Assembly: GCA_017542425.1 (NCBI GenBank)
Contig: JAFXXH010000017.1
Location: 2,129-66,128, forward strand
DNA from: Oscillospiraceae bacterium
GTDB lineage: Bacteria > Bacillota > Clostridia > Oscillospirales > Oscillospiraceae
Direction: 5' to 3'
Length of the DNA stretch: 64,000 nucleotides
The notes beneath the pieces are model-generated. The model made no database searches. It saw only the letters and a list, made by a program, of their open reading frames with translations, and was not told the DNA's origin. Positions 5,326-64,000 of the stretch are shown one piece after another. Positions within the stretch are counted from its first letter, which is position 1, and each line of letters begins with the position of its first letter. The translations under genes and the position numbers were made by a program.

Positions 5326-5328
5326 ACT

Positions 5329-51018: not shown

Positions 51019-51408
51019 TTATTCCGCGTCCTTCTTCACATATTTCCGGATCAGCTCCTCCACCGTGTCGATGAGTTCGGGAGCCTTTTCGATGATGCGG
51101 TCCACCGTGCCGTTGGCCGGGGGCGTCACGTTCAGCATCCGCACGCTGCCCTCCCGCACCACCAGAAAGCCGATGGGCTCCACCCGGATGCCCGCGCCAT
51201 TGCCGCCGCCGAAGCCCAGGTCGCTGCGCTCTTTCATGCGGAAGTCGCTGCCGCCGGAGGCGAAGGCATAGCTGACCCGGGAGACCGGGATGATGGTCAC
51301 GCCGTCCGGGGTCTGGATCGGGGACCCCACCACCGTGTCCACGTTGATCATCTCTTTGAGCTTCTCCATGCTCTTGTCCATCAGAGCGCCGATGTTGCTG
51401 TTTTCCAT
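51019..51408 (-). CDS. ytfJ: sporulation protein YtfJ (GerW family)
   Basis: VDTVVGSPIQTPDGVTIIPVSRVSYAFASGGSDF and GGGNGAGIRVEPIGFLVV motifs. Confidence 0.9.
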   Translation of the reverse strand: MENSNIGALMDKSMEKLKEMINVDTVVGSPIQTPDGVTIIPVSRVSYAFASGGSDFRMKERSDLGFGGGNGAGIRVEPIGFLVVREGSVRMLNVTPPANGTVDRIIEKAPELIDTVEELIRKYVKKDAE

Positions 51409-51414
51409 AGCTCC

Positions 51415-52053: not shown

Positions 52054-52113
52054 AGCCAGGATGATGATGACAGTCAGGGCCCTTCCCCTCCTTTCCTGCG
52101 GGTCCGCGTCCGC

Positions 52114-52740
52114 TTATGTCTCCTGCGGGGCCTGTTCGGCGCTCCGCAGCGCGTCAATCTTGTTTTGCAGGGCGATGATGCCCTCGTCGGTGCCGGTGTC
52201 GGGCAGCTCCGGCAGCTCGTCCAGGGATCGGAGATCCATGGTTCGCAAAAAGGCGTCCCCGGTGCCGTAGAGGGTGGGGCGGCCCGGCGCGTCCAGCTTG
52301 CCCACCGGCTCGATCAGGCCCCGCTCCGTCAGGAGGCCCACGGTGTAGGCGCTGTCCACCCCCCGCACCGCGTCGATGTATGCCCGGGTGACGGGCTGGA
52401 AATAGGCCACGATGGCCAGCACCTCCAGCGCAGCGGCGCTGAGCCGGGGGGGTCGGCGGGTCTCCAGGGCCCGGGTGATGTACTGGGCGTAGTCCGGCGC
52501 GGAGCAGAGCTGCCACTTCCGGTCCAGATGCTGCAGCCGGACGCCCCGCCCGGCTCTCTGGCAGTCGCGGCGCAGCTCCTCCGCCGCCGCGTCCACCTCC
52601 GCCTCCGTGACGCCCAGCACCAGGGCCAGGCGGGAGGCCGCCACCGGTTCCCCGGCGGCGAAAAGAATCGCCTCCAGGGCGGCTTTTCGCTCCAGGGCCT
52701 CCATTGGTAAGTTTTCCTGTTCCATCTTTTCTTTATACAC
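52114..52740 (-). CDS. scpB: segregation and condensation protein B
   Basis: LEAILFAAGEPV, EVLAIVAYFQPVTRAYIDAVRGVDS and GRPTLYGT motifs. Confidence 0.93.
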   Translation of the reverse strand: MYKEKMEQENLPMEALERKAALEAILFAAGEPVAASRLALVLGVTEAEVDAAAEELRRDCQRAGRGVRLQHLDRKWQLCSAPDYAQYITRALETRRPPRLSAAALEVLAIVAYFQPVTRAYIDAVRGVDSAYTVGLLTERGLIEPVGKLDAPGRPTLYGTGDAFLRTMDLRSLDELPELPDTGTDEGIIALQNKIDALRSAEQAPQET

Positions 52741-53566
52741 CGCCCTCTCCCTGCGTCATGGCGGCCACGATCTCCGCCGCGTTCCCGCCGCAAAAGCGCA
52801 GAAACATGACGCCGTCCGCTTCCTCCATGCGGGTGTGGCCCAGGCTGCACAGTTCCAGAATCGAGAGGAAACCGGCCACCAGTTCGCTGCGGCTGGCGCT
52901 CTCCCGGTAGATTTGCTGGATGGGGATGCGTCCCCCCGCCGCCAGGCGCAGCAGCAGCTCCCGGCTCTTGTCCCGGACGGGGTAGACGATGCGCTTAGGG
53001 ATCAGCCGCCGGGTCTGGCCTGCTTCTTCCTCCGTCTCGTCCTCCGCCGACCTGCCCCGGCGCAGCGCCGTGGACAGGGCGTTCAGCAGCTCCCAGGGGG
53101 CGTGGTGATAGCGGTATTCGCGCACCGTGGGCAGGGGCTCCGGCGGCTTGCAGCAGTAGGCGGAACCCAGCGCAATGCGCCGGGCAAAGGCGGGGGCGAT
53201 CGACTGCACGGCGGCGTACACGTCCCGCGCCCGCAGCTGCTCCAGGGAGGCCATCAGCAGTTCCAGCTCCCCCGGCGTCTCCGCGTCGGCGCTCAGGAGC
53301 ATCCGGGTTTTGATGTACAGCAGATGGGCGGCCATCTGGACGAACTCGCTGGCGATTTCCAGGTCCATCTCCTTCATCCGGTCCAGATAGTCCAGATACT
53401 GCTCCAGGATCTGGGCGATCTGGATGTCCCGGATCTCCACCTTGTTGCGGCTCAGGAGCATCAGGATCAGCGTCAGCGGCCCCTCAAAGTCCGCCATTTC
53501 CTCCTTGGAGCGAATCACGCCCGGCAGATGGAAGCTGAGTTCCTGTTCCATAGCGTTTCGATCCAC
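52733..53566 (-). CDS. scpA: segregation and condensation protein A
   Basis: FEGPLTLILMLLSRNKVEIRDIQIAQILEQYL and the ScpA C-terminal winged helix. It overlaps scpB by 8 nt. Confidence 0.93.
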   Translation of the reverse strand: MDRNAMEQELSFHLPGVIRSKEEMADFEGPLTLILMLLSRNKVEIRDIQIAQILEQYLDYLDRMKEMDLEIASEFVQMAAHLLYIKTRMLLSADAETPGELELLMASLEQLRARDVYAAVQSIAPAFARRIALGSAYCCKPPEPLPTVREYRYHHAPWELLNALSTALRRGRSAEDETEEEAGQTRRLIPKRIVYPVRDKSRELLLRLAAGGRIPIQQIYRESASRSELVAGFLSILELCSLGHTRMEEADGVMFLRFCGGNAAEIVAAMTQGEGGV

Positions 53567-53572
53567 CTTATA

Positions 53573-54262
53573 TTAAAATAGTGTCGCGCCCAGGGAAGCG
53601 CCCCACTCCGCCAAGGGCCACAGGCGCAGATAGCACCACTCCACCGCAGCGGAGAGCGGCCCGCCCAGCACGCCGCTGAGGGAGAGGGCGATCAGCACAA
53701 TCATCCCGTAGCGCTCATAGCGCATCAGCTTCTCATAGGCCTGGTCGCTGAGGAAGGCGAACAGCACCTTGCTCCCGTCCAGCGGGGACACGGGCAGCAG
53801 GTTGAAAATCGCCAAGGCCAGGGAGAGCTGCGCCGTCACCATCAGGGTGTCCGCCGCAAAATCCGCCAGCGCCGTCCCCGCCCGGTAGAGCGGCAGGGCA
53901 AAGAGGCCGTAGAGGAACAGCGTCAGCGCCGTCAGCAGCAGATTGCTGAGCGGTCCGGCCAGAGCCGTCAGGGCCATGTCCCGCCGGGGATTGCGGAAGC
54001 GGCGCATATCCACAGGCACCGGCCTGGCCCAGCCGAAGCCCACGGCCACCATCATCAGCGTCCCCAGGGGGTCAAAGTGGGCCAGCGGGTTCAGCGTCAG
54101 TCGCCCGGCGCGCCTGGCCGTGTCGTCCCCCAGGCGCCAGGCGGTCAGGCCGTGGCACAGTTCGTGGACCGTGATGCAGACCAGGGCCGGGAGGATGCGC
54201 AGCAGAATGTCCGTCAGCACCGACCAGTCCAGGCCGTTCCAAAAGGTTTGAAAGCTCGTCAA
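53573..54262 (-). CDS. site-2 protease family (M50) membrane metalloprotease
   Basis: HELCHGLTAW HExxH motif inside a TM helix, multi-pass hydrophobic profile, and a later NLLPVSPLDG motif. The track gives a TTG start. Confidence 0.88.
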   Translation of the reverse strand: MTSFQTFWNGLDWSVLTDILLRILPALVCITVHELCHGLTAWRLGDDTARRAGRLTLNPLAHFDPLGTLMMVAVGFGWARPVPVDMRRFRNPRRDMALTALAGPLSNLLLTALTLFLYGLFALPLYRAGTALADFAADTLMVTAQLSLALAIFNLLPVSPLDGSKVLFAFLSDQAYEKLMRYERYGMIVLIALSLSGVLGGPLSAAVEWCYLRLWPLAEWGASLGATLF

Positions 54263-54349
54263 AGCGAATACACCTCACAGATTGTTTCATTATAACAAAG
54301 GCGCGGACAAAACGCAAGGCGGCAAAAAAGCAAATTCCGGGCGAAGGCG

Positions 54350-54398
54350 GAAAAGAGCAGGGACGACTCCGGGCTGTTCCCGGAGCGTCCCTGCTCTG
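54350..54398 (-). terminator. rho-independent terminator ending the feo operon
   Basis: Minus strand reads AGAGCAGGGACGCTCCGGG-AACA-GCCCGGAGTCGTCCCTGCTCT followed by TTTCC. Confidence 0.75.
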
Positions 54399-54414
54399 TC
54401 GCTTCTGTTCCGTT

Positions 54415-54588
54415 TCATTTCGTGTCCGCGCCCTTGCCGCATCCGCCGCAGGCGGCGCAATCACAGCCGCAGGAAGCGTTCCCCGCTTTTTTGTCGCGGC
54501 GCATGGCGCGGAACACCAGGCCCACGACCAGCACGAGGACGGCGACCAGCACGAGATTGATGAGATTGGCGGAAAGCCAGGCCAGCAT
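54415..54588 (-). CDS. FeoB-associated Cys-rich membrane peptide (57 aa)
   Basis: Own translation: MLAWLSANLINLVLVAVLVLVVGLVFRAMRRDKKAGNASCGCDCAACGGCGKGADTK. It has one TM helix plus a CxC/CxxC tail directly downstream of feoB. It falls below the size cutoff of the ORF track, and the 174-aa track ORF here is in a different frame. Confidence 0.75.
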   Translation of the reverse strand: MLAWLSANLINLVLVAVLVLVVGLVFRAMRRDKKAGNASCGCDCAACGGCGKGADTK

Positions 54589-54672
54589 AGAATCACATCC
54601 TTTGCAAAAGCTGGCGGCGCTGCGGGGGCAGAGGGATATTCCCCCGCAGCGCCGCCGATGGAAAGAAAACGC

Positions 54673-57021
54673 TTACTTCACGGTCAGCTTCTGGGCCTCC
54701 TTGTAGGGCTTGAAGAGCTGCCACAGGAGCAGACCCAGCGCAATCAGCGCCAGAATCAGGCCGACGACGTTCACGCCGCCCACGAACACCCGGCCGATCT
54801 GCCAGACCAGGAAGGCGATCACCCAGGCAAAGCCGCACTGGTAGCCGATGGCGAACCAGGTCCACTTGCGGCTGTTCATCTCCCGCCTGATCGCGCCGAT
54901 GGCCGCGAAACAGGGGGCGCAGAGCAGGTTGAAAATCAGGAAGGCATAGGCGGCAAGTCTGCCGTGGCCGCCGGAGATGGCGTTGAAGTCCTCCGCCACG
55001 TTCTCCCAGATCTGGTCGCCGTTTTCCTCCAGCTCCTCCAGGATGGGTTCGCCGGTCTCCTCGTCAAAGAGCGGTTCGCCGGTCTCCTCGTCCACGGCCT
55101 GCTCGGCCCTGGCGTCGAAGTTGTACATGATTCCGAAGTTGGCCACGACCTCCTCCTTTGCCACCAGGCCGGTGACCGTGGCGGCAGTGGGCTTCCAGTC
55201 GCCGAAGCCCAGGGGCTTGAAGACGATGGAGACGGGCTGGGCCACGCGGGCCAGGATGGAATCGTCCATCGGCTCCACCTCGTCCTCGGAGATGCCCATA
55301 CGCTCGGCCACGATGGCCACATATTCGTCGGTGACCAGGCTGTCATCCTCATAGAGCTCGTCCACCATGCCGAATCTGCCGTTGACGGAGCCGAAGCTGG
55401 TCAGGAACCAGATCACAATGGAGGAGACCACGATGACGGTCCCGGCGCGCTTGATAAAGCTCCAGCCGCGCTCCCAGGTGCCGCGCAGGACGTTGCCCCA
55501 GGCGGGGGCGTGGTAGGCGGGCAGCTCCATGACGAAGGGGGCGGGGTCCCCGGCAAAGCGCTTCGTCTTCTTCAGCATGATACCGGAGATCACAATGGCA
55601 GCCACGCCGATGAAGTAGGCGGAGGTGGCGACCAGGGTGCTGCCGCCGAACAGCGCGCCCGCGATCAGGCCGACGATGGGCATTTTCGCCCCGCAGGGCA
55701 TGAAGGTGGTGGTCATGATGGTCATGCGGCGGTCACGCTCGTTTTCAATCGTGCGGGAGGCCATGACGCCGGGGATGCCGCAGCCGGTACCCACCAGCAT
55801 GGGGATGAAGCTCTTGCCGCTCAGGCCGAAGCGGCGGAAGATGCGGTCCATGATGAAGGCGATGCGCGCCATGTAGCCGCAGTCCTCCAGCAGGCAAAGC
55901 ATCAGGAACAGCACCAGCATCTGGGGCACGAAGCCCAACACCGCGCCCACGCCGGCCAGGATGCCGTCGGAGATCAGACCCACCAGCCAGGGGGCGGCGT
56001 TCCAGCTCTCCAGGATGGCGCGGGAGCCGTCGGTCAGCCAGGCCCCGCCCAGCACGTCGTTGGCCCAGTCGGTCAGGAAGGTGCCGATGGAAATGCCGCC
56101 GTCGGCGATGGAGGTGCCCATGGACAGGGCGTAGACCAGGAACATGACTCCGATGAAAATCGGCAGCGCCAGGATGCGGTTGGTGACGATCTTGTCGATC
56201 CGGTCGGAGGTACTCTGTTTGGTCCTGTTCTTTTTCTGATAGCACCCGCGCATCAGGCCCGCGATGTAGATGTAGCGCTCGTTGGTAATGATGCTCTCCG
56301 CGTCGTCGTCCAGCTCCCGCTCCGCCGCGGCGATATCCTGTTCGATATGTGCTTTGATCCCGTCGCTGAGGGCCAGCTTGCTCTGGACCTTTTCATCCCG
56401 CTCGAAGAGCTTGACGGCATACCAGCGCTGGCGCTCCTCCGGCATGTTGTGGACCGTAATCTCCTCGATGTGGGCCAGGGCGTGCTCCACCACGCCGGAA
56501 AAGCTGTGCTGGGGCACGGTCCTCGGCCCCTGGGCGGCCTCCACGCAGGCGCGGACCGCCGCGTCGATCCCCTCGCCCTTGAGCGCGGAGATCTCAACAA
56601 TCCGGCAACCCAGGGCGCGGCCCAGTTCCTCCGTGTGGATGGTGTCGCCGGACTTGCGCACCAGGTCCATCATGTTCAGGGCAATGACCACGGGGATGCC
56701 GATCTCCACCAGTTGGGTGGTCAGATAGAGGTTGCGCTCCAGATTCGTGGCGTCGACGATGTTCAGCACCACGTCGGGCTGTTCGTCGATCAGATAGTTC
56801 CGGGCCACGACCTCCTCCAGCGTGTAAGGGGACAGAGAGTAGATGCCGGGTAGGTCCGTGACGGTCACGTCCTTCTGGCCGCGCACGCGGCCCTCCTTCT
56901 TCTCCACCGTCACGCCGGGCCAGTTGCCCACATACTGCTGGGTCCCGGTCAGCGCGTTGAACAGCGTCGTCTTGCCGCAGTTGGGGTTGCCGGCAAGGGC
57001 GATGCGAATTCCAGTTTTCAT
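54673..57021 (-). CDS. feoB: ferrous iron transporter FeoB
   Basis: IALAGNPNCGKTTLFNALTG G1 motif, DLPGIYSL, NMMD, and a large gate-motif-containing polytopic membrane domain. Confidence 0.97.
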   Translation of the reverse strand: MKTGIRIALAGNPNCGKTTLFNALTGTQQYVGNWPGVTVEKKEGRVRGQKDVTVTDLPGIYSLSPYTLEEVVARNYLIDEQPDVVLNIVDATNLERNLYLTTQLVEIGIPVVIALNMMDLVRKSGDTIHTEELGRALGCRIVEISALKGEGIDAAVRACVEAAQGPRTVPQHSFSGVVEHALAHIEEITVHNMPEERQRWYAVKLFERDEKVQSKLALSDGIKAHIEQDIAAAERELDDDAESIITNERYIYIAGLMRGCYQKKNRTKQSTSDRIDKIVTNRILALPIFIGVMFLVYALSMGTSIADGGISIGTFLTDWANDVLGGAWLTDGSRAILESWNAAPWLVGLISDGILAGVGAVLGFVPQMLVLFLMLCLLEDCGYMARIAFIMDRIFRRFGLSGKSFIPMLVGTGCGIPGVMASRTIENERDRRMTIMTTTFMPCGAKMPIVGLIAGALFGGSTLVATSAYFIGVAAIVISGIMLKKTKRFAGDPAPFVMELPAYHAPAWGNVLRGTWERGWSFIKRAGTVIVVSSIVIWFLTSFGSVNGRFGMVDELYEDDSLVTDEYVAIVAERMGISEDEVEPMDDSILARVAQPVSIVFKPLGFGDWKPTAATVTGLVAKEEVVANFGIMYNFDARAEQAVDEETGEPLFDEETGEPILEELEENGDQIWENVAEDFNAISGGHGRLAAYAFLIFNLLCAPCFAAIGAIRREMNSRKWTWFAIGYQCGFAWVIAFLVWQIGRVFVGGVNVVGLILALIALGLLLWQLFKPYKEAQKLTVK

Positions 57022-57254
57022 ATGCCGCTCCTTTCCTCCACTTCGATCATTTCCGCGTCGGCCTTGCGGATGGACAGCTCATAGCCCCGCACGTTCACCT
57101 CCACCGGGTCGCCCAGCGGGGCCAGCTTGCGGACGTAGATCTCTACGCCCTTCGTAACGCCCATGTCCATGATCCGCCGCTTGACCGCGCCCGCGCCGTG
57201 CAGCTTCACGACCCGGACGGTCTCGCCGACTTTCGCGTCTCTGAGTGTTTTCAT
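57018..57254 (-). CDS. feoA: FeoA domain protein
   Basis: LRDAKVGETVRVVKLHGAGAVKRRIMDMGVTKGVEIYVRKLAPLGDPVEV is an SH3-like FeoA domain. AAAGGAG RBS. It overlaps feoB by 4 nt. Confidence 0.9.
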   Translation of the reverse strand: MKTLRDAKVGETVRVVKLHGAGAVKRRIMDMGVTKGVEIYVRKLAPLGDPVEVNVRGYELSIRKADAEMIEVEERSGI

Positions 57255-57284
57255 CCTCATCGCTCCTTTTCGATTCAAATTGGA

Positions 57285-57497
57285 TCAGACCATGATCTTC
57301 CCGGCCATTTCGCGGCTGAGGGCCACGCGGGACTCCTTGACCTTGACGATCAGGTTCCCGCCGATGGTATTCAGCACCGTGACGGTCCCGCCGACGACAA
57401 AGCCCATGTCCTCCAGGTGCTTTTTCAGCTCCGGCGTCCCGCCCAGGCGCAGGATGACGGCTTCCTCCCCCGCCCCCGACAGATACAGCGGCATCAT
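57285..57497 (-). CDS. feoA: FeoA domain protein (second copy)
   Basis: MMPLYLSGAGEEAVILRLGGTPELKKHLEDMGFVVGGTVTVLNTIGGNLIVKVKESRVAL, with a [14 protein letters not shown]. Confidence 0.88.
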   Translation of the reverse strand: MMPLYLSGAGEEAVILRLGGTPELKKHLEDMGFVVGGTVTVLNTIGGNLIVKVKESRVALSREMAGKIMV

Positions 57498-57562
57498 CGC
57501 TTTTCCCCCCTCCTTGCACCGTGCCACAGAATTAAATGAAACTAACTTGCGATTCGGCAAAA

Positions 57563-57580
57563 GGTTAGGTTCTCCTAACC
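57563..57580. promoter_or_regulatory. DtxR-type iron-box-like operator in the feoA 5' region
   Basis: Perfect inverted repeat GGTTAGG-TTCT-CCTAACC. It resembles the DtxR/IdeR consensus TTAGGTTAGCCTAACCTAA and starts 8 nt downstream of the -10. Confidence 0.65.
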
Positions 57581-57587
57581 GTCTGGG

Positions 57588-57616
57588 AGTTTAACATACT
57601 TAACTCTTGTTGTCAA
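57588..57616 (-). promoter_or_regulatory. sigma-A promoter of feoA-feoA-feoB
   Basis: Minus strand reads TTGACA-17 nt-TAAACT. Confidence 0.6.
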
Positions 57617-57692
57617 GAGCGAACTTCCCTGCACTTTGATTTTTCTTGCTTTTTGCATATTTTTATGGTAATCTTTTCAGCAGGTGATGAAA

Positions 57693-58061
57693 ATGACGAT
57701 CCATGAATCCGCAGAAAACTATCTGGAAGCCATGCTGATGCTCAAGGAGGAGCGGGGCTACATCCGCTCCATCGACGTGGCGGAAAAGCTGGGCGTAACC
57801 AAGCCCAGCGTCAGCTACGCAACCAAACGCCTGCGGGAGAGCGGCTATATCACGCTGGACCCGGCGGGGATGATCGTGCTGCTCCCTCCGGGGCTGGAGA
57901 TCGCGGAGCGGATTTACGAGCGCCACAAGCTCCTGACCGAACTGTTCATCGGCCTGGGCGTCAACCCGGAGACCGCCCGGCAGGACGCCTGCAAGATCGA
58001 ACACGACCTGAGCGTGGAGACCTTCGAGGCCATTCGCAGACATGCCCAAATGTACCGCTGA
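57693..58061 (+). CDS. DtxR/MntR family metal-dependent transcriptional repressor (no SH3-like C-domain)
   Basis: SAENYLEAMLMLKEERGYIRSIDVAEKLGVTKPSVSYATKRLRESGYI is a winged HTH. ERHKLLTELF...DACKIEHDLS is the dimerisation/metal-site region. The start was set at the ATG 5 nt after AGGTGA. Confidence 0.9.
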   Translation: MTIHESAENYLEAMLMLKEERGYIRSIDVAEKLGVTKPSVSYATKRLRESGYITLDPAGMIVLLPPGLEIAERIYERHKLLTELFIGLGVNPETARQDACKIEHDLSVETFEAIRRHAQMYR

Positions 58062-58081
58062 GCTTTCTCACACATGCAAGT

Positions 58082-58120
58082 CCTCCGATCTGCGCGGAAG
58101 CCGGATCGGAGGGCTTTTCG
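58082..58120 (+). terminator. rho-independent terminator after the dtxR-like gene
   Basis: CCTCCGATC-loop-GATCGGAGG followed by GCTTTTCG. Confidence 0.6.
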
Positions 58121-58163
58121 TCTCGGCGGAAAAAAAAGTCTTTTCAAACGGGAACAGATGTGC

Positions 58164-58192
58164 TATCATCAGCAATTAGATAAGCCTAACTT
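58164..58192 (+). promoter_or_regulatory. -10 element (TATCAT) plus an iron-box-like operator upstream of the HMA gene
   Basis: TATCAT at 58164-58169, then AATTAGATAAGCCTAACTT at 58174-58192 (imperfect TTAG..CTAA palindrome). The geometry matches that at feoA. Confidence 0.5.
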
Positions 58193-58222
58193 CTGGAAAC
58201 GAGCTTTGGAAAGGTGAGACAC

Positions 58223-58474
58223 ATGATCAAGACCACAGTGAAAATCGACGGCATGATGTGCCCCATGTGCGAGGCGCATATCAGCGAGGCGATCCGAAAG
58301 GCGATCCCCTCCGCCAGGCAAGTCAGCGCCAACCGGCGCAAGGGGGAGGCGGTGTTCCTGACGGAACAGGCCGTGGACGGAGCGCTGCTGCGACAGGCCA
58401 TTGACGCCACAGGCTACCGCTGCCTGGGCGTGGAATCGGCGCCCCACGAGAAGAAGCGCTGGTTTCAAAAATAA
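58223..58474 (+). CDS. heavy-metal-associated (HMA, CopZ-like) domain protein
   Basis: MIKTTVKIDGMMCPMCEAHISEAI carries the GMxCxxC metal-binding motif. It is about 83 aa with a ferredoxin-like beta-alpha-beta-beta-alpha-beta pattern. Confidence 0.88.
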   Translation: MIKTTVKIDGMMCPMCEAHISEAIRKAIPSARQVSANRRKGEAVFLTEQAVDGALLRQAIDATGYRCLGVESAPHEKKRWFQK

Positions 58475-58483
58475 ACACGAAGG

Positions 58484-58527
58484 CCGCACAATTCTGACTG
58501 CGCGATGGGCATGTCAGAACTGTGCGG
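58484..58527. terminator. hairpin between convergent genes (possible bidirectional terminator)
   Basis: CCGCACAATTCTGAC-14 nt-GTCAGAACTGTGCGG. The U-tracts are weak on both strands. Confidence 0.5.
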
Positions 58528-58544
58528 TTTCGTATGGACAGGTC

Positions 58545-60104
58545 TTATCTCCTGGCCTGGCTCAAAGCGGCGCGGACGGCGGCGCGCAGGCCCTCGGAAG
58601 AATAGGTCGCGCCGGAAACGCCGTCCACATTCGGCGACTGCGCGGACAGCATGGCGGCGATCATCCGCGCACCGTCTGCGCCGGGGTCGAAGTAATCCAC
58701 GTCATCCTTGAACGCAGTGATGCGGATGTCCACAATGCGGTCGTCCCGGATGGTCACGGATACGGCCACGTCTCCGGCCGTACCCAGGTTTCCGACGCCG
58801 GATCCGCTGTAGGTCCCGTCCTGATAGACCCGGACAGGCGTGGGCTCGGGGGTGGGCACCGGAGTCGGCTCCGGCGTAGGTTCGGGCGTAGGTTCCGGAG
58901 TCGGCTCCGGGGTGGGTTCCGGGGTGGGCTGCTGCGTCGGTTCCGGCGTCGGTTCCGGCGTCGGGGTGGCTTGCGCCGTGGGCTGCGGCGTCGGTTCCGG
59001 CGTCGGCTTCGGTGCCGGTTTCGCCGTGGGTTCGGGCGCGGCTGCGGTCTCCGGTTCCGGCGTCGGCGCTGACGTGGCCGTGGGTTCCGGTTCCGGCTGC
59101 GCTTCTCCCTTTGCTTCCGGGTCCGGGGATGGGCTTGAGACGGACGCGGTGGGCGTCACTTCCGGCGTCAAGTCGGGCTCCGGCGTGGACGACGCGTCCG
59201 TGCTTTCCGGCGCGGGCGGTGGTGACGGCAGAGACTCCGTTGCTTCCGAGGCCTCGGACGCCGAGAGCGGTTCCGTGGAGACGGCCGCTGCGGAAGCCCC
59301 TTCCCCGTCCTGCGCCTCTCGCGCTGCGGAAACCGCCAGCGTCAATGCCGCAGCGAGCAGCAGCGCAAAGAAAAGGGCGACCAGCTGGCGGCGCGCCAGC
59401 CCCGTTTCGCTCTGCCGACGGCGGGCCAGCGCTTTCAGAATCCGGCAGGCGGCGTAAGCGACGAAGATCGCGGTGTAGACGAACACGGTCAGTCCGTAAC
59501 CGAGACGGCCCCGCAGCGCGTTGGGGATGGTCAGCAGCAGGATGTGGAGGCAAAGCAGGGCATAGAACAGATAGGCCCAGCGCTGCAGGCGTTTCCAGGC
59601 TTTTGGCCGCATCTTTTTTCGGACAGCAGGGAAGCTGGTGATCCACAGCGGCAGCATCACCAGATCCATGACGACGGAGCAGAGGGCCGCCAGCAGCGTC
59701 GCTGTGGGCAGGCTGGCGGCGTCCGTAAACAGCAGGACGAAATAGGTCTTGCCGTACGCCACGTTGTGGGCAAGGGTGAAAATCCCGGCCAGAATGGACA
59801 GAGGCCCGCGGACGGGCATCAGCGTTCGCGCTCCCCTGGAACCGTTGGGGAAGGCTCCGGCCACCATCACCAGCACAAACAGCGCACCCGCCAGCGCGCC
59901 CCGGGCGAAAATGGGCCAGATCCAGCTGTTGACAAAGGCCGGGAAGCGGACCCCGGCAAAGGCGCAGACCACGACGGCAAGGGACAGCAGCGCGGCACAG
60001 AGATAAAACGGCCCCGGCGCGGTCCGCAGCTGCTTGCCCAGCAGTAGCACCAGCAGCAGCGCCAGGGCGAGAGAGATCAGAAAAACCAAAGACGGCACCT
60101 CCAT
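58545..60104 (-). CDS. ferric-reductase-like transmembrane domain fused via a Pro/Thr/Glu linker to an extracytosolic FMN_bind domain
   Basis: The N-terminal ~230 aa form six TM helices with His in TM segments (FTLAHNVAYG, ALLCLHILLL), as in YedZ/MsrQ/FRD proteins. A ~170-aa (PEPT)n-rich linker follows. The C-terminus GTYSGSGVG...VDGVSGATYSSEG is an FMN_bind domain with the canonical flavinylation site. The start may instead be the TTG at 60089, which follows GGAGG. Confidence 0.88.
   Translation of the reverse strand: MEVPSLVFLISLALALLLVLLLGKQLRTAPGPFYLCAALLSLAVVVCAFAGVRFPAFVNSWIWPIFARGALAGALFVLVMVAGAFPNGSRGARTLMPVRGPLSILAGIFTLAHNVAYGKTYFVLLFTDAASLPTATLLAALCSVVMDLVMLPLWITSFPAVRKKMRPKAWKRLQRWAYLFYALLCLHILLLTIPNALRGRLGYGLTVFVYTAIFVAYAACRILKALARRRQSETGLARRQLVALFFALLLAAALTLAVSAAREAQDGEGASAAAVSTEPLSASEASEATESLPSPPPAPESTDASSTPEPDLTPEVTPTASVSSPSPDPEAKGEAQPEPEPTATSAPTPEPETAAAPEPTAKPAPKPTPEPTPQPTAQATPTPEPTPEPTQQPTPEPTPEPTPEPTPEPTPEPTPVPTPEPTPVRVYQDGTYSGSGVGNLGTAGDVAVSVTIRDDRIVDIRITAFKDDVDYFDPGADGARMIAAMLSAQSPNVDGVSGATYSSEGLRAAVRAALSQARR
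58832..59260 (-). repeat. in-frame low-complexity tandem repeat encoding the (PEPT)n / Pro-Thr-Glu-Ala linker
   Basis: Plus strand shows reiterated GGTTCCGGCGTCGG / GGCTCCGG units. Translated on the minus strand this gives PTPEPTPEPTPEPTPEPTPEPTPVPTPEPTP and degenerate copies. Confidence 0.9.
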
Positions 60105-60112
60105 GTTCCAGG

Positions 60113-60153
60113 ATAAAAAACACCGGGGACGCCCGACGGGCGGACGACCCCGG
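60113..60153 (-). terminator. rho-independent terminator after the SLH surface-protein gene
   Basis: Minus strand reads CCGGGGTCGTCCGCCCGTCGGGCGTCCCCGG followed by TGTTTTTTAT. Confidence 0.8.
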
Positions 60154-60176
60154 CCAAAAAGGAGAAGTGGGAAAAC

Positions 60177-62255
60177 TCAGCTTTGTGGATCAGACCGCGC
60201 CGTTGCATAGAGCAGGGACACGATCTCGGCGCGGGTGTAGGGCGTCTCGGCCCGGAAGCTGCTTCCGGCTTCGATCAGGCCCTTCTCCGCCGCCCAGGAG
60301 GCGGCGTCACGGTACCAGGCCTCGGGCTTCACATCGTCAAAGGCCTTTTGCGCGGCGGGGGCGGGCCGTCCTTCGGCTTTCCAGAGGACGCCGATGATCT
60401 GTGCGCGGTCCACGGTCTGCATGGGGCTGAAGCGGTCCGCGCCCGTGCCGTCGATGATGCCGTTTTCAACCGCCCAGAGGACCGCTTTACAATACCAGTC
60501 GTCCTCCCGGATGTCCGTGAAGGGGGTTTCGACGGATTCAGGCTGCGGCTGTCCGGCGCGTTTCCAGAGGAAGGTGACCAGAGTCGCCCGGTTTACGGTC
60601 AGTTCCGGGGAGAAGGTCCCGTTTCCGGTTCCGCTGGTGACGCGGTTTTTCCTGGCCCAGATCAGCGCCTCGGCATAGTCGGCGTCCTTCGGCACATCGT
60701 AGTATCCGGTGGCCCCCAGGTCCGCGATGGCGATCTGCACCGGGAAATCCAGCACGGCAGACGGGGTGTAGTAGCGGATGTTGGTAATCGTTTTTCCGTC
60801 GATGGCCGCCAGCGGCTCGTCCAGGTTCCAACCCAGCTCCGTGGCCCGCCAGATGTTCGTCACATGGCCCATGCCGTATTTCGCGCCGTCCTCGGTGGTC
60901 AGCACCACAGCGCTGACGGCGTCGCCTTTGGCGATCCCCTCCGTGCCTTCCAGTACCATTTCAATGGAAGTGTGCCGTCCGTTGTAGGTCACGGTGGCGC
61001 TGACACCTTCCACCGTTGCGGCGCGCCCGCCCACTGCGGAGAAGCGGAAGCCGCCGTCCTCCGCCACGGAGAGCGTCTTGTACTTTGCGGGCTTCTCCGA
61101 CAGCGCATACCAGGCATGGTCCGGGGCTTCAAACAGAGAATCCCTGCCCGCATAGGTCGCGGTATTCGTCTGGCCGCGGGCGCTGGTGGTGATCTCCACG
61201 CTGCGTGCGTCGGTGACCTCCAGCGCAGCATCCAGCATATCCAGATCCGGGACGAACACAGGATAGCTGACGCCGTCTACGCCGTCGCCCTCCGCGCTGA
61301 CATGATAGGAGCCGGAGGCCAGGCCTCCGTTGCTCCGTTTGTTTTTGGTGGCCGCGCTGACCGCGTCCGGCGCGTCCGCTTCGCCCAACTCTGCGGCGTA
61401 GAATTCGGCGTAGGGGATGTTCATTTGGACATAGCCTGCCTTACCGATGGTCAACTGAACCGGATAGTCCAGAATGGCGTCACGGGTATAGTATCGAATG
61501 TTGGTGAGCGTCTTTCCGGCGAGCCCTGCGGCCCCTTCGTCCAGGTTCCAGCCCAGCTGCGTCCCGCGCCAGATGTTATAAACGTGGCGCAGCCCGTATT
61601 GGCTGCCGTCGGAAGCCGTCAGCACCACGCCGCTGACAACGGTATCCGCCGCGATGGCGGCTGTGTTTTCCAGAACGATTTCGATGTCTGTATGCCGTCC
61701 GCCCATCGTCAGCGTGGGGACGACGCCCTCCTGTGTGGAAGCCGCGCCGCGCACAGCGGAAAAGCGCAGCGCGCCGTTCGTGACGGAGAGTTCTTTGTAA
61801 CAGGCGGGCCTTTCTTTCAACACATAGTAGGAGTAGCTCGGAGCCTCAAACAACGCATCCGCGCCCTCATAGACGGTGGTTCTCTCCTGACCCCGGTTCA
61901 CGACGGTGATCTCCACGCGGGCCGTATCGTCCAGGCGGTTCAGCCCCGCCAGCGCCGCAGAGTCCTTGACAAGCACGGGATAGATGACGCCGCTGATGTC
62001 ACTGCCGTCAGCATTGACGTGGTAGGAGCCGCCGGCCAGCGTACCCGTCCTGGGCTTATTCAGCGTAGAGGAACTTACGGCGTCCACGGCCTTGTCCGTT
62101 TCGCCCAGTTCCGATGCATAAAAGTCGGCGTAGGGGATGTTCATCAGGACATAGGTCTCTTCCGCCGCCAGCGCCGCAGACGGCAGCGCCCCGATCAGCG
62201 TCAGCAGGCAGAGCAGCAGTCCCAGCGTTTGTCTGAGCTTTTTCACATTCATCAT
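60177..62255 (-). CDS. cell-wall-anchored (3x SLH) surface protein with two tandem copies of an unassigned ~240-aa domain
   Basis: Signal peptide LGLLLCLLTLIGALPSAALA. Copy A spans aa ~38-278 and copy B aa ~279-519, sharing MNIPYA(D/E)FYA.ELGE, DAVS..T, SGSYHV, RHT.IE.VLE, NIWR.T.LGWNLDE and TNIRYYT. Three SLH modules lie at aa ~522-690. The start was set at ATGATG after GAGGTG. Confidence 0.88.
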   Translation of the reverse strand: MMNVKKLRQTLGLLLCLLTLIGALPSAALAAEETYVLMNIPYADFYASELGETDKAVDAVSSSTLNKPRTGTLAGGSYHVNADGSDISGVIYPVLVKDSAALAGLNRLDDTARVEITVVNRGQERTTVYEGADALFEAPSYSYYVLKERPACYKELSVTNGALRFSAVRGAASTQEGVVPTLTMGGRHTDIEIVLENTAAIAADTVVSGVVLTASDGSQYGLRHVYNIWRGTQLGWNLDEGAAGLAGKTLTNIRYYTRDAILDYPVQLTIGKAGYVQMNIPYAEFYAAELGEADAPDAVSAATKNKRSNGGLASGSYHVSAEGDGVDGVSYPVFVPDLDMLDAALEVTDARSVEITTSARGQTNTATYAGRDSLFEAPDHAWYALSEKPAKYKTLSVAEDGGFRFSAVGGRAATVEGVSATVTYNGRHTSIEMVLEGTEGIAKGDAVSAVVLTTEDGAKYGMGHVTNIWRATELGWNLDEPLAAIDGKTITNIRYYTPSAVLDFPVQIAIADLGATGYYDVPKDADYAEALIWARKNRVTSGTGNGTFSPELTVNRATLVTFLWKRAGQPQPESVETPFTDIREDDWYCKAVLWAVENGIIDGTGADRFSPMQTVDRAQIIGVLWKAEGRPAPAAQKAFDDVKPEAWYRDAASWAAEKGLIEAGSSFRAETPYTRAEIVSLLYATARSDPQS
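60711..62156 (-). repeat. internal tandem duplication (two ~720-nt domain-coding copies)
   Basis: The protein-level repeat described above gives copy A at about 61434-62156 and copy B at about 60711-61433. The copies have diverged (roughly half the residues identical by eye), so the duplication is not recent. Confidence 0.8.
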
Positions 62256-62287
62256 AACACCTCTCATTCTGGATTTGTTATCAGCCG

Positions 62288-62311
62288 CTAACGTTAGTTA
62301 GACTAATCTAA
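62288..62311. promoter_or_regulatory. iron-box-like operator(s) in the 5' region of the SLH surface-protein gene
   Basis: CTAACGTTAG is a perfect 10-bp palindrome. It overlaps TTAGTTAGACTAATCTAA, which is close to the DtxR consensus half-sites. The site lies about 16 nt downstream of the -10. Confidence 0.6.
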
Positions 62312-62328
62312 TCACGGCGACGTGTTGG

Positions 62329-62357
62329 AGTATAACAGCAACGCGCAGAAATGTCAA
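62329..62357 (-). promoter_or_regulatory. sigma-A promoter of the SLH surface-protein gene
   Basis: Minus strand reads TTGACA-17 nt-TATACT. Confidence 0.6.
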
Positions 62358-62373
62358 TCCCCAAATTTCCAGC

Positions 62374-62403
62374 TTGACAAACAAAACACCGCGGATTTAC
62401 AAT
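62374..62403 (+). promoter_or_regulatory. sigma-A promoter of apbE
   Basis: TTGACA-18 nt-TACAAT, arranged back-to-back with the divergent promoter (the -35 boxes are 16 nt apart). Confidence 0.6.
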
Positions 62404-62416
62404 AAATCATACGGGA

Positions 62417-62434
62417 AGTTAGTTTTTTCTAACT
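62417..62434. promoter_or_regulatory. iron-box-like operator upstream of apbE
   Basis: Perfect inverted repeat AGTTAG-TTTTTT-CTAACT between the -10 and the RBS. Confidence 0.6.
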
Positions 62435-62456
62435 CTTGAAAAAAGGAGGGGATGGA

Positions 62457-63491
62457 ATGCGACGGGCCGCCTGCCTTCTCTGTCTCAGCTTTCTGCTGCT
62501 GAGCGGCTGCGGCGGGAACTCCGCTTCCACCGCGCCCACGGAGCGGGAGCGCAGTTTCTTCGCCATGGATACCTATATGAGCATTCGCGCCTTTGGGGCG
62601 GAGGAAGCGCTGCTGGAGCGTGCGGAGGCCGCAGTCACGGATCTGGAGCGGCGCATCTCCGTCACGGACCCGGACAGCCAGATCGCCGCGCTGAACCGCA
62701 ACGGGACGGGCACGCTGGACGCGGAGACGGCGGAGCTGCTGCGCCGGGGTCTCGCGCTCTGCGCGGAGACGGGCGGGGCGCTTGATCTCAGCGTCTATCC
62801 GGTGCTGCGGGCCTGGGGCTTCACCACAGGCGACTACCGCGTCCCCGCCCCGTCGGAGCTGGAAGCGCTGCTGACGCTGGTGGACCATCGCCGGGTGAAG
62901 CTGAACGAGGCCGGAACCGTGTCGCTTGACCCGGGGATGCAGCTCGACCTGGGCAGCGTGGCCAAGGGGTATGTGGGAGACAAGCTCTGCGCCCTGCTGC
63001 GCACCGGCGGCGTGAATAGCGCCCTGTTGGATCTGGGCGGGAACGTACAGGCGCTGGGCGGCAAGCCGGACGGAAGCGCCTGGCGCGTGGGCATCCGGGA
63101 CCCCCAGGGCGCGGGGCTGCTGGGCGTGGTCTCCGTCCGGGACTGTGCGGTGGTCACATCCGGCGGCTATGAGCGCTATTTCCTGGACGCGGACGGGACG
63201 GTCTATTGGCACATTCTGGACCCCGCCGACGGGATGCCCGCGAAAAACGGCCTGATCTCCGTCACCGTCGTGGGGACGGAGGGCCTTCTCTGCGACGCGC
63301 TCTCCACCGCGCTGTTCGTCATGGGCACGGAGCGGGCGGCGGACTACTGGCGCGCCCACGGGGACTTTGAACTGGCGCTGGTCACGGAGGACGGCAGACT
63401 GCTGCTGACGCCTGGCTTGGCGGAGGGTTTCACCCCGGCGGAGGGCCTGAACTATCGGATCGAGACGCTGGAGCGGGAGGGCGCGGCATGA
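62457..63491 (+). CDS. apbE: FAD:protein FMN transferase (ApbE family) lipoprotein
   Basis: Lipobox LLLSGCGG. ApbE motifs FAMDTY, DLGSVAKGY, TSGGYERYF, HILDP and [21 protein letters not shown] lies before the ATG at 62457; the track starts at an upstream TTG. Confidence 0.93.
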   Translation: MRRAACLLCLSFLLLSGCGGNSASTAPTERERSFFAMDTYMSIRAFGAEEALLERAEAAVTDLERRISVTDPDSQIAALNRNGTGTLDAETAELLRRGLALCAETGGALDLSVYPVLRAWGFTTGDYRVPAPSELEALLTLVDHRRVKLNEAGTVSLDPGMQLDLGSVAKGYVGDKLCALLRTGGVNSALLDLGGNVQALGGKPDGSAWRVGIRDPQGAGLLGVVSVRDCAVVTSGGYERYFLDADGTVYWHILDPADGMPAKNGLISVTVVGTEGLLCDALSTALFVMGTERAADYWRAHGDFELALVTEDGRLLLTPGLAEGFTPAEGLNYRIETLEREGAA

Positions 63492-64000
63492 CGAAGCGCA
63501 TCACCCACGCGGCGCTGCTCACGGCCCTGGCGCTGATCATCTTCGTGCTGGAGGCGCAGATCCCGCCGCCCGTCCCGATCCCCGGCCTCAAGCTGGGTCT
63601 GGCCAACATCATCACCGTGTACGCCATGTTCCGGCTTGGGCCAAAGGACACGCTGGCGATCCTGCTCTCGCGCATCTTCCTGGGCAGCGTGTTCGCGGGC
63701 GCTGTCAGCGCCATGCTGTTCTCTCTGGCGGGCGGGCTGCTGTGCTATCTGCTGATGCTGCCGCTGCGGCGGCTTCTGAGCCTGCGTCAGATCTGGGTCT
63801 GCGGCGTGTTGGGCGCGGTGGCGCACAACCTGGGCCAGACCGCCGCCGCGATTTTGATCTACCGCACGTTTGCCGTCGCCTTTTATCTCCCGGTGCTGCT
63901 GCTGAGCGCCGTCGTCACCGGGACCCTCACGGGGCTGAGCGCACAGTACGTCGTGCGCCGCATGGAGCAAAGGGAGCAGAACAGGTCGGACATGGAAAAA
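63488..64000 (+). CDS. Gx transporter family membrane protein (formerly 'heptaprenyl diphosphate synthase component I'-like); the 3' end is beyond the window
   Basis: Own translation: MTKRITHAALLTALALIIFVLEAQIPPPVPIPGLKLGLANIITVYAMF...GAVAHNLGQTAAA. The ATG overlaps the apbE stop (ATGA). There is no in-frame stop before 64000. Confidence 0.8.
   Translation, partial: MTKRITHAALLTALALIIFVLEAQIPPPVPIPGLKLGLANIITVYAMFRLGPKDTLAILLSRIFLGSVFAGAVSAMLFSLAGGLLCYLLMLPLRRLLSLRQIWVCGVLGAVAHNLGQTAAAILIYRTFAVAFYLPVLLLSAVVTGTLTGLSAQYVVRRMEQREQNRSDMEK

Follow-up and report, generated by a model that had tools for sequence, protein, structure and literature searches.

The locus described here raises the question of what connects genes for ferrous iron import with genes for flavinylated surface proteins. 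It occupies positions 54415-64000 of the window, the 64-kb stretch of Oscillospiraceae DNA (contig JAFXXH010000017.1) that was analysed, and comprises a feo operon, a small DtxR/MntR-family regulator, an HMA-domain protein, a membrane protein in which an MsrQ-like heme b domain is joined to an FMN_bind domain (MsrQ-like::FMN_bind), an SLH-anchored surface protein, and apbE followed by an eetB-like gene. The surface protein contains two copies of an unassigned domain of about 245 aa, termed DUPdom in the following. The answer proposed here is an iron-starvation regulon, which would couple Feo-dependent Fe2+ import to an extracytoplasmic, flavin-based reductase. A palindromic operator shared by the transcription units and conserved across genomes carries this reading. 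A shared and conserved regulon is regarded as very probable; for the chain as a whole, which is derived from sequence, the balance of evidence is slightly favourable. Both the regulon and the flavinylation module are real, conserved features; physical association with feo is confined to certain lineages, and the link of the module to iron is mainly regulatory.

Within the window the palindrome TTAGN6CTAA is found exactly four times (57565, 58176, 62298 and 62419), compared to 0.06 expected occurrences, and none of 100 shuffled windows reached this number. A -10-like hexamer is situated 7-31 bp upstream of each box, and the promoters agree with the consensus at 10-11 of 12 positions in three cases and at 9 of 12 in the fourth. 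Allowing up to two mismatches, GTTAGN6CTAAC gives six matches in the window. All of them lie inside this locus, two being degenerate second boxes which adjoin boxes 1 and 3, and even at two mismatches no further box was found in the first 54 kb of the window. The boxes are arranged as follows:

57531-57546, degenerate second box beside box 1
57564-57579, operator box 1 (GTTAGGTTCTCCTAAC), 3' of the feo promoter (-35 at 57616-57611, -10 at 57593-57588)
58175-58190, operator box 2 (ATTAGATAAGCCTAAC), 3' of a promoter-like site at 58141-58169
62277-62292, degenerate box beside box 3
62297-62312, operator box 3 (GTTAGACTAATCTAAT), 3' of the SLH-gene promoter (-35 at 62357-62352, -10 at 62334-62329)
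62418-62433, operator box 4 (GTTAGTTTTTTCTAAC), 3' of the apbE promoter at 62374-62403

Together with its flanking bases, box 4 forms a perfect AGTTAG-N6-CTAACT. An earlier reading of the window, made from the letters alone (the sequence-only reading), had described four units, each with a promoter-like site followed by a TTAG..CTAA palindrome, and this arrangement was borne out. The spacing implied by the 19-bp DtxR box does not apply: TTAG-N11-CTAA gives no match, the actual spacing being N6.

The operator is not confined to the window. Among 164 fetched related loci, which carry L-numbers as labels (L007, L080 etc.), 130 contain an exact TTAGN6CTAA. Of the 264 boxes, 191 are located within 250 bp upstream of genes for DUPdom, MsrQ-like ferric reductase domain, FMN_bind, ApbE, Feo, Tp47-like, DtxR or HMA proteins, regions which make up 5.5% of the locus sequence (binomial p ~1e-176; as the loci are partly redundant the exact figure means little, but the effect is very large). 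In the non-redundant species set, a box is present at the 5' end of the DUPdom reading frame in 49 of 70 evaluable species-level loci, at a median position of -65 and against a background of 0.034 per equal-sized window. The consensus derived from 154 unique sites is aGTTAG-N6-CTAACt. The claim that the units share one operator extends to many Clostridia, where boxes also precede MsrQ-like::FMN_bind, apbE, feoA, FTR1, HMA and DUF2325/DUF3793-flavodoxin operons. Flavodoxin, FTR1 and Feo are classical products of iron starvation, and the content of the box-bearing units thus fits an iron-starvation regulon of a small DtxR-type repressor. The boxes located away from flavinylation, Feo, DtxR and HMA genes look mostly genuine too, and the DUF2325 and DUF3793 domains appear to belong to the same putative regulon in Clostridia. 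A box lies upstream of an FTR1 permease in L051 and in the divergent FTR1/apbE region of L168, and others lie upstream of ABC exporters in L080 and L158. Individual DUF2325/DUF3793 genes with an upstream box, commonly followed by flavodoxin, are located at L043:8755-9405, L045:1907-2467, L052:512-1066, L064:9227-9838, L134:6987-8327, L040:8104-9123, L072:1627-1905 and L073:10618-10887.

With respect to known operators, the half-sites GTTAG and CTAAC are the same as those of the 19-bp DtxR/IdeR consensus TTAGGTTAGCCTAACCTAA, which we take as quoted in the sequence-only reading and which contains two overlapping TTAGN6CTAA elements; the resemblance to a DtxR/IdeR box proposed there is thereby upheld. 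A description of the operator aGTTAG-N6-CTAACt was not found in the literature searched. Fur was considered as the binding protein and rejected: the box is unlike the Fur consensus, and a DtxR-like gene adjoins box-bearing promoters in several loci (window strain, L038, L072 and L080).

In the window this gene encodes the following protein:

57684-58061, plus strand, small two-domain DtxR/MntR-family metalloregulator, 125 aa (PF01325, E 2e-13; PF02742, E 2e-12)

The regulator combines a helix-turn-helix domain (PF01325) with a metal-binding and dimerisation domain (PF02742), as in DtxR and IdeR, and ends after the latter; a C-terminal SH3-like domain is not present. It is the candidate repressor acting at the boxes, with AGTTAGTTTTTTCTAACT as its putative operator sequence. 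Its Cys-x-x-Glu-His aligns with C102, E105 and H106 of DtxR. MntR has Glu at the Cys position of DtxR, which we take to be among the positions separating the two families. In all orthologues of the window regulator the position of MntR Glu99 is occupied by Cys. The binuclear, all-oxygen/nitrogen site of MntR (Asp8, Glu11, His77, Glu99, Glu102 and His103 in B. subtilis) is incomplete in the window protein, where Asp8 is replaced by Asn and Glu99 by Cys. At the Met10/Asp8 position the closest neighbouring-gene orthologues, L038 and L080, have Met and five others have Asp. In the Blautia locus L072, the stretch separating the feo operon from the DtxR-like gene (4975-8202) encodes a Fur-family protein, a DUF6110 protein and a P-type ATPase, so that Fur and a small DtxR-type regulator are close together in this genome.

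These features bear on the nature of the metal. If the regulator were an MntR orthologue, the locus could be a manganese regulon in which FeoB imports Mn2+ and the reductase serves to mobilise oxidised Mn or some other purpose. In sequence the regulator indeed matches MntR models and structures best (2H09, 7e-18; B. subtilis MntR, 7e-14; DtxR, 1.5e-6), several orthologues share the Asp of MntR D8, and a FeoB paralogue of Porphyromonas gingivalis reportedly transports Mn2+. All NCBIfam MntR scores, however, are far below the cut-offs (92 and 73 bits compared to 153 and 138), the invariant Cys in place of Glu99 is that of Fe-sensing DtxR, the operator half-sites agree with DtxR/IdeR boxes, and the regulon holds iron-starvation markers such as flavodoxin, FTR1 and FecCD-linked genes. 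A manganese regulon is therefore considered quite improbable. Iron is the more likely signal because of the Cys-x-x-Glu-His ligands and the content of the regulon, and we regard an iron signal as likely on these grounds.

The genes of the locus were called from the listing of open reading frames (ORFs) and from Pfam and NCBIfam profile searches of the window, and every gene named by the sequence-only reading is present:

54415-54588, minus strand, FeoB-associated Cys-rich membrane peptide, 57 aa (PF12669, E 6e-12)
54673-57021, minus strand, feoB, ferrous iron transporter, 782 aa (FeoB_N, FeoB_Cyto, two Gate domains, FeoB_C; E down to 4e-67)
57018-57278, minus strand, second copy of feoA, 86 aa (PF04023, E 4e-22)
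57285-57497, minus strand, first copy of feoA (PF04023, E 5e-16)
58223-58474, plus strand, HMA-domain protein with MCPMC, 83 aa from ATG (PF00403, 24.8 bits)
58545-60104, minus strand, MsrQ-like::FMN_bind membrane protein, 519 aa (FMN_bind PF04205, E 3e-11)
60121-60138, minus strand, terminator-like GC hairpin with T-run between the SLH gene and the MsrQ-like::FMN_bind gene
60177-62267, minus strand, SLH-anchored DUPdom protein, 696 aa (signal peptide, two DUPdom copies, three SLH repeats)
62457-63491, plus strand, apbE, lipoprotein FAD:protein FMN transferase (PF02424, E 4e-82; lipobox LLSGC)
63488-64000, plus strand, eetB-like gene of the 'Gx' family, cut by the window end (PF07456, E 1e-38)

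The Feo system consists of a FeoB with N-terminal GTPase, Gate and C-terminal domains, FeoA and the FeoB-associated peptide. For the first feoA copy the likely start is the ATG at 57497, which follows AAGGAGG; the mechanical ORF reaches 57560, and the gene is called as 70 aa in the near-identical strain L079. The regulator gene is divergent from the feo genes and is followed on the plus strand by the HMA gene, whose ORF begins at GTG 58214 (86 aa). The Pfam score of the HMA protein equals the cut-off of 24.8 exactly, and its NCBIfam matches are weak and CopZ-like. It is conserved in the window species and also in L080, with two boxes upstream of the L080 orthologue. Convergent to the regulator-HMA pair are the SLH gene and, downstream of it, the MsrQ-like::FMN_bind gene. 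The apbE gene, divergent from the SLH gene, probably starts at ATG 62457 after AAAGGAGGGG and encodes an ApbE domain together with an LLSGC signal, which places it outside the cytoplasm. The adjoining protein had been left unassigned as a Gx-family protein by the sequence-only reading. PF07456, however, corresponds to the EetB family, whose Listeria member, an ECF-S-like subunit, is required to export FAD for flavinylation by ApbE (FmnB); the family is widely co-localised with apbE (PMC9973259). The apbE-PF07456 operon of the window thus corresponds to FAD export in support of ApbE. Searches for riboswitches or other RNA control gave no Rfam match at gathering thresholds in window positions 50000-64000. 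Upstream of the locus, on the minus strand at 49777-54262, lie ORFs of housekeeping or sporulation type, by eye a D-alanyl-D-alanine carboxypeptidase, a YtfJ-like protein, ScpB, ScpA and a site-2-protease-like membrane protein, with no operator box near them.

The membrane protein of the module is composed of three parts:

59310-60104, minus strand, MsrQ/ferric-reductase-like heme b membrane domain, residues 1-265, with invariant H113 and H187
58821-59309, minus strand, Pro/Thr/Glu-rich linker, 163 residues (30% Pro, 17% Thr, 15% Glu)
58548-58820, minus strand, FMN_bind domain (PF04205, E 3e-11), motif DGVSGAT at residues 494-500, nt 58605-58625

In the AlphaFold model, the helices (pLDDT 88-98) and the FMN_bind domain are confident, and the linker is predicted to be disordered (pLDDT 32-67 over roughly residues 271-420). 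The membrane domain comprises eight helices over residues 4-275, probably forming seven membrane spans; with an odd number of spans the FMN_bind domain would therefore be located outside the membrane. Thus, of the six-transmembrane ferric-reductase-like domain proposed from sequence, the number of six did not stand, whereas the linker and the FMN_bind domain with its DGVSGAT did. The FMN_bind part has the fold of a flavinylation substrate, matching 8P2A, 8P2B and 3O6U in Foldseek with probability 1.0 (TM-score 0.8 for 8P2A and 8P2B, ~0.55-0.60 for 3O6U), and its motif agrees with the canonical ApbE motif D-x-x-[ST]-G-A-[ST]. For the membrane domain the NCBIfam matches are weak (MamZ ferric-reductase-like C-terminus 4e-7, MsrQ 0.022). 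Many of the 73 homologues of the protein, at 50-65% identity, carry precomputed PF01794 (marked weak where its strength is shown) together with PF04205, and JGI names them YedYZ heme-binding membrane subunit with FMN-binding domain. H113 and H187 are invariant in an alignment of 48 sequences. They agree with the two-His, single-heme site that is modelled for MsrQ-like proteins by Huang et al. 2024 (PMC11334425); the four-His, two-heme pattern of eukaryotic ferric reductase domains is not present, as only these two His residues are conserved. The domain is accordingly likely to belong to the MsrQ-like branch of the ferric-reductase superfamily.

Membership of the MsrQ/YedZ-like family, together with the JGI name of the homologues, could also suggest a repair function, in which electrons are delivered to a surface enzyme that mends oxidised envelope proteins, as in E. 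coli MsrPQ, and the adjacency to feo is coincidental. An MsrP/YedY-like molybdoenzyme, however, is absent from the window locus and from all related loci examined, and the operator held in common with iron genes would be left unexplained, which makes repair the least probable of the explanations considered. Within the window, the MsrQ-like domain, FMN_bind domain and apbE all lie within 5 kb of each other, as in the MsrQ-like flavinylation clusters.

Two related metagenome contigs allow a close comparison of the pair formed by this protein and its surface neighbour. In L085 (2798-6535) the MsrQ-like::FMN_bind protein is 98% identical to that of the window and the layout agrees. In L079 (8666-11479, compared to window 58545-62267) the MsrQ-like protein is 99% identical, yet the gene calls give an SLH protein of 415 aa, possibly with one DUPdom copy, and split the membrane protein into an MsrQ-like gene (368 aa) and an FMN_bind gene (104 aa). 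This difference reflects either strain variation of the repeats and the PT linker or assembly collapse.

The surface protein encoded upstream of the membrane protein is organised as follows:

62163-62267, minus strand, signal peptide
61431-62162, minus strand, DUPdom copy 1, residues 36-279, motif DAVSSST at nt 62064-62084
60693-61430, minus strand, DUPdom copy 2, residues 280-525, motif DAVSAAT at nt 61347-61367
60180-60692, minus strand, three SLH repeats, cell-wall anchor (PF00395, E 9e-24, three stretches)

The two copies are 56% identical (BLASTP 1e-91). DUPdom has no Pfam match at E up to 10 and no NCBIfam match at E up to 0.1, the sole NCBIfam match of the whole 696-aa protein falling on the SLH region; a DUPdom profile gave no match among PDB sequences at E 10. 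The family itself is large. A word-indexed search yielded 215 clusters and an exhaustive profile search 1014 representative clusters at E <= 1e-3, or 824 at E <= 1e-10. Relatives were found in 390 genomes in a scan with one genome per species, and many proteins contain 2-8 copies, with lengths up to 2251 residues. Some homologues are fused to FMN_bind, SLH or FIVAR domains. The motif noticed in the window is a family-wide feature: D-[AGT]-[VF]-[TS]-S-A-T stands at the same position in ~113 of 120 homologues, and in an alignment of 56 sequences (A1) its D26 and T32 do not vary, nor do N7, I8, P9, Y10, F13, Y14, K35, S45, Y46 and H47. The invariant residues Y10, F13, Y14, Y46, H47, Y112, H192 and W197 (A1 numbering) are candidates for an isoalloxazine or metal site. 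The AlphaFold2 model is mostly beta (pLDDT 84). Foldseek gave no significant PDB match for it, the best (E 0.035) being generic Ig-like sandwiches.

Signal peptide and SLH repeats place DUPdom outside the cytoplasm, and the domain is genomically associated with apbE. DUPdom is a plausible candidate ApbE substrate; on balance its flavinylation is considered moderately probable. DUPdom might instead be a non-redox surface receptor that binds heme, a siderophore, a host protein or another source of iron. Its motif would then be structural, and any reduction would be due to the tethered FMN_bind domain alone. Such a role would account for the motif without canonical Gly, for the lack of structural similarity to known flavoproteins, for the occurrence of DUPdom within very large multi-domain surface proteins (SLH, FIVAR) and beside FecCD importers, and for the well-flanked loci, about half, that lack ApbE or FMN_bind nearby. 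The motif, however, is the most conserved feature of the family and agrees with the ApbE motif at 5-6 of 7 positions, including the initial Asp and the acceptor Thr. Moreover, DUPdom-FMN_bind fusions exist, and no family neighbours DUPdom more often than ApbE (12 of the 31 well-flanked loci). A receptor without redox function is therefore considered unlikely, and DUPdom is discussed in the following as a candidate flavin carrier.

Neighbourhoods of DUPdom were counted in the 78 best-matching species-level loci of the 390 genomes, many of these loci being incomplete. All hosts are gut or rumen Clostridia and relatives, including Oscillospiraceae, Lachnospiraceae, Erysipelotrichaceae, Faecalibacterium, Agathobaculum, Brotaphodocola and Sarcina sp. 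DSM 11001. Cultivable carriers include Agathobaculum butyriciproducens DSM 100391, Sarcina sp. DSM 11001 and Brotaphodocola catenula. ApbE is encoded nearby most often (24 loci), closely followed by FMN_bind proteins (23), often as a protein with 4-5 FMN_bind domains plus a small one. Further neighbours are a NapH-like Fer4_5 membrane protein (13), PF07456 (11), an ABC ATPase cluster (10), NusG_II (7), DtxR-like (7) and FeoB (2). In 31 loci the flanks reach at least 5 kb in each direction; of these, 16 contain a flavinylation component, 12 ApbE within 10 kb, and one Feo. In the one locus examined for it, L008, the ABC ATPase cluster is part of a FecCD-type importer (2766-6607; Peripla_BP_2, two FecCD permeases and an ATPase), which stands beside the DUPdom-SLH gene at 8699-12253. 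A FecCD importer in this position is a second kind of link to the uptake of iron chelates.

A complementary set of MsrQ-like::FMN_bind loci was assembled from a metagenome scan and contig look-ups and comprised ~27 lineages after dereplication at 80% identity. DUPdom is present in 15 of these and in most of the 15 lies directly upstream, as in the window, L007, L038, L080-L085, L087, L101, L125, L134, L141 and L166-L169; in the L092 group it is encoded downstream of apbE in the same cluster. ApbE adjoins MsrQ-like::FMN_bind in 15 of the first 23 dereplicated groups. Feo is found with the window species (L079/L085), L080 (54% identity) and L134 (32% identity), and FTR1 in two MsrQ-like loci, L082 and L168. 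The window-like gene set recurs in L080 and L134, and a similar set without the MsrQ-like gene is encoded in Blautia L072 (feoA-feoA-feoB-Cys peptide, DtxR, PF07456, DUPdom, FMN_bind and ApbE). The conserved core is thus the DUPdom to MsrQ-like::FMN_bind pair with apbE; the full composition of the window is found in a few separate lineages and is not the rule. It had been expected that these genes would co-occur and co-vary with feo. The first part holds for the pair and apbE, but co-occurrence with feo is the exception, and as a general rule the co-variation of DUPdom with feo was discarded.

A rival reading is a more general electron outlet. The module might serve redox balance or respiration to flavins, quinones, oxygen or other acceptors, and might be switched on at low iron because a flavin/heme-b route spares iron, as flavodoxin does for ferredoxin, the supply of Fe2+ to Feo being incidental. 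In its favour, an iron transporter is missing from the vicinity of most DUPdom loci, multi-FMN_bind and NapH-like modules typical of multi-flavinylated electron-transfer systems are further partners of DUPdom and Tp47-like proteins, flavodoxin operons carry the same box, and Méheust et al. suggest that flavinylation may be favoured in iron-poor settings (PMC8238504). However, Feo, FTR1 and FecCD importers recur directly beside these genes in several unrelated lineages, and a terminal reductase domain or quinone-linked dehydrogenase is not encoded in the locus. A general outlet is the strongest competitor, though an improbable one, and reductive iron acquisition remains the preferred reading.

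Where MsrQ-like::FMN_bind lineages lack DUPdom, the neighbour can be a protein with PBP-Tp47_a/PBP-Tp47_c domains (L130 and the 31-locus group L131-L164). In Faecalibacterium, a Tp47-like gene with an upstream box precedes multi-FMN_bind, FMN_bind and NapH-like genes. Tp47-like proteins are encoded at L130:12613-14274, L155:9331-10869, L061:1655-3016 and L165:9001-10314. DUPdom-Tp47-like fusions occur in Agathobaculum (L063:8741-12754 and L068:8744-12493) and in L071 (6902-11647). The Tp47-like proteins possess a motif FD[AT]V[ST]RAT, which is also found in Tp47 of T. pallidum (TP0574, PDB 1O75). With signal peptides removed, the hhalign match between DUPdom and Tp47-like proteins covers the ~60 residues at their N-termini and takes in the motif (probability 87%, E 4e-6); beyond this N-terminal module no sequence similarity was detectable. 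Homology between DUPdom and Tp47 is claimed for this module only, because Foldseek, run with the DUPdom model, did not place 1O75 in its listed top 50. A Faecalibacterium Tp47-like query returned close Faecalibacterium relatives only among the matches listed, Treponema Tp47 not being reached. No link between Tp47 and flavinylation was found in the literature searched. TP0572, a membrane protein two genes away from TP0574, is listed with a flavinylation motif (Deka et al. 2015), the connection between the two being based on that paper and on gene numbering.

Given the shortness of the similarity, the relation between Tp47 and DUPdom is offered as a lead. A bolder and more tentative proposal, which we consider rather doubtful at present, is that DUPdom and the Tp47 family are two branches of an unrecognised class of ApbE-flavinylated surface redox proteins, sharing an N-terminal Y-x-x-x-Y/W ... 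D-x-V-[ST]-x-A-T ... G-S-[YF]-[HQ] unit. Throughout gut Clostridia, Faecalibacterium and Agathobaculum among them, they would then be the terminal parts of a reductive iron acquisition that is repressed by iron, and Tp47 would be a flavinylated periplasmic redox protein that works with TP0572 and not a penicillin-binding protein.

For the window, reductive iron acquisition can be formulated as a sequence of steps. When iron is sufficient, the small DtxR-type repressor (57684-58061) would occupy the AGTTAG-N6-CTAACT operators just 3' of the -10 elements and thereby repress four units, namely feoA-feoA-feoB-Cys peptide, the HMA protein, DUPdom-SLH followed by MsrQ-like::FMN_bind, and apbE-eetB. 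Upon iron limitation it would leave the four operators and all four units would be expressed. The EetB-like protein would export FAD, and ApbE would attach FMN to Thr500 of the FMN_bind domain and presumably also to the threonines of DAVSSST and DAVSAAT in both DUPdom copies. Electrons could cross the membrane through the single bis-His heme b of the MsrQ-like domain to the FMN_bind domain. The 163-residue Pro/Thr/Glu tether, with an extended length estimated here at up to roughly 50 nm (163 residues x ~0.35 nm), would be long enough for the FMN_bind domain to reach the wall-anchored DUPdom protein. As a terminal or substrate-binding redox module, DUPdom might then reduce Fe(III) or Fe(III) chelates, followed by entry of Fe2+ through FeoB. 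For Fe(III) as the physiological acceptor the arguments are evenly balanced.

Several observations weigh against this sequence of events. With regard to control, the regulator is in overall sequence closer to Mn-sensing MntR than to DtxR and has Asn at the Met10 position, and Feo is physically linked in a minority of cases only (3 of ~27 MsrQ-like lineages and 1-2 of 78 DUPdom loci). With regard to the membrane step, the domain has no Pfam Ferric_reduct match even at E 10, its Foldseek matches are weak (STEAP2 7TAI, probability 0.72, E 0.43; NOX5 5O0T, probability 0.47), and a cytoplasmic electron donor is not encoded in the locus. With regard to DUPdom, the canonical Gly of the motif is replaced, by Ser family-wide and by Ser/Ser and Ala/Ala in the window copies, and the motif lies in a disordered loop that the AlphaFold2 model cannot place; about half of the well-flanked DUPdom loci also lack a flavinylation gene within 10 kb. 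In a model ApbE substrate, the exchange of this Gly for Ala still allowed ~50% flavinylation (PMC12052999). Finally, the two genes of the proposed relay are parted by the strong terminator-like hairpin listed above. It ends 17 nt before the ATG of MsrQ-like::FMN_bind, and neither a recognisable promoter nor a good ribosome-binding site was seen after it in the intergenic region 60105-60176. As neither a box nor a promoter of its own was detected for the MsrQ-like::FMN_bind gene, its expression must depend on read-through past the hairpin or on an undetected promoter. The hairpin might act as a partial terminator, which suggests a stoichiometry with more surface protein than membrane protein.

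If the proposal is correct, many abundant gut and rumen Clostridia would reduce iron at the cell surface with covalently bound flavins in order to acquire it, under control of a shared DtxR-type iron switch. The scale would be at least 390 species genomes with DUPdom, including Faecalibacterium, Agathobaculum, Oscillospiraceae and Lachnospiraceae. A large unannotated surface family (1014 representative clusters, up to eight copies per protein) would gain a function, one or two fold classes would join the short list of ApbE substrates, and there would be a testable idea of what Tp47 does, an enigmatic antigen of T. pallidum that serves in diagnostics. Iron regulons of uncultured Clostridia could furthermore be predicted from the operator.

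Comparison with known systems shows that the locus is not without precedent, as the sequence-only reading had supposed. Clusters of MsrQ-like, FMN_bind and ApbE proteins, a subset of them linked to a ferrous-iron transporter, are proposed as assimilatory iron reductases by Méheust et al. 2021, eLife (PMC8238504). Most of the clusters described there are actinobacterial, a cytosolic NAD-binding domain is often included, and 153 of them carry VIT1. The window resembles them in its heme b membrane protein with two conserved His residues, FMN_bind domain and apbE, and in the link to a ferrous-iron transporter that a subset of them shows. It differs in that the host is an Oscillospiraceae-like member of the Clostridia, the MsrQ-like domain is fused to FMN_bind by a long PT-rich tether, a NAD-binding domain is absent from the window, and the transporter is FeoAB instead of VIT1. 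A conserved DtxR-type operator and an unannotated, motif-bearing surface domain as conserved partner likewise set the window apart. Huang et al. 2024, mSystems, add Flavodoxin_4, FMN_red and DUF4405 (PMC11334425). Neither DUPdom, Tp47-like proteins, a Feo linkage nor a DtxR-type operator is mentioned in the sections consulted of these two papers; the eLife article has 'Feo' a single time, within the title of a reference, and 'SLH' likewise once (PMC8238504).

The extracellular electron transfer (EET) locus of Listeria monocytogenes (Light et al. 2018; PMC9973259) is similar with respect to the Gram-positive host, the ApbE-type flavinylation of surface FMN_bind domains, which is predicted for the window, and an EetB-family gene beside apbE. 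It comprises Ndh2, EetA, EetB, FmnA, FmnB/ApbE, PplA and DmkA/B, with the reduction of ferric iron as a readout (PMC9973259). In the window locus only an EetB-like protein and ApbE have counterparts, Ndh2, DmkA/B, EetA, FmnA and PplA not being encoded there, and because Ndh2, DmkA/B and PplA are absent the locus is not of the Listeria EET type. Moreover, the membrane would be crossed by an MsrQ-like heme protein instead of via the quinone pool, SLH-anchored DUPdom takes the place of the lipoprotein PplA at the surface, and control would be exerted through an iron box.

The regulator shares with DtxR and IdeR the helix-turn-helix and dimerisation/metal domains, Cys-x-x-Glu-His, the GTTAG/CTAAC half-sites and putative targets of the feo type. 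In contrast, it has no SH3-like domain, is closer to MntR and has Asn for Met10, and in place of the 19-bp operator its putative box spans 16-18 bp and is palindromic around a variable centre of 6 bp.

Tp47-like proteins fill the slot of DUPdom with the same operator upstream, the common N-terminal module of ~60 residues and an analogous motif, whereas Tp47 (TP0574, PDB 1O75), unlike DUPdom, is annotated as a penicillin-binding protein. Multi-flavinylated proteins, which in Gram-positive bacteria are associated with the wall and for which electron transport over a distance is proposed (Méheust 2021; PMC10339131), likewise consist of tandem extracytoplasmic motif-bearing domains, of which there are two in the window protein and up to eight in its relatives. 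Their domains are of the FMN_bind type, whereas DUPdom is an unrelated fold of ~245 aa and a candidate flavin carrier only. In general form, the concept of an MsrQ-like/FMN_bind/ApbE iron reductase is thus already known. New here are the coupling to Feo, the conserved operator and a candidate new flavinylated substrate or terminal domain, the operator conserved across genomes being the main new result.

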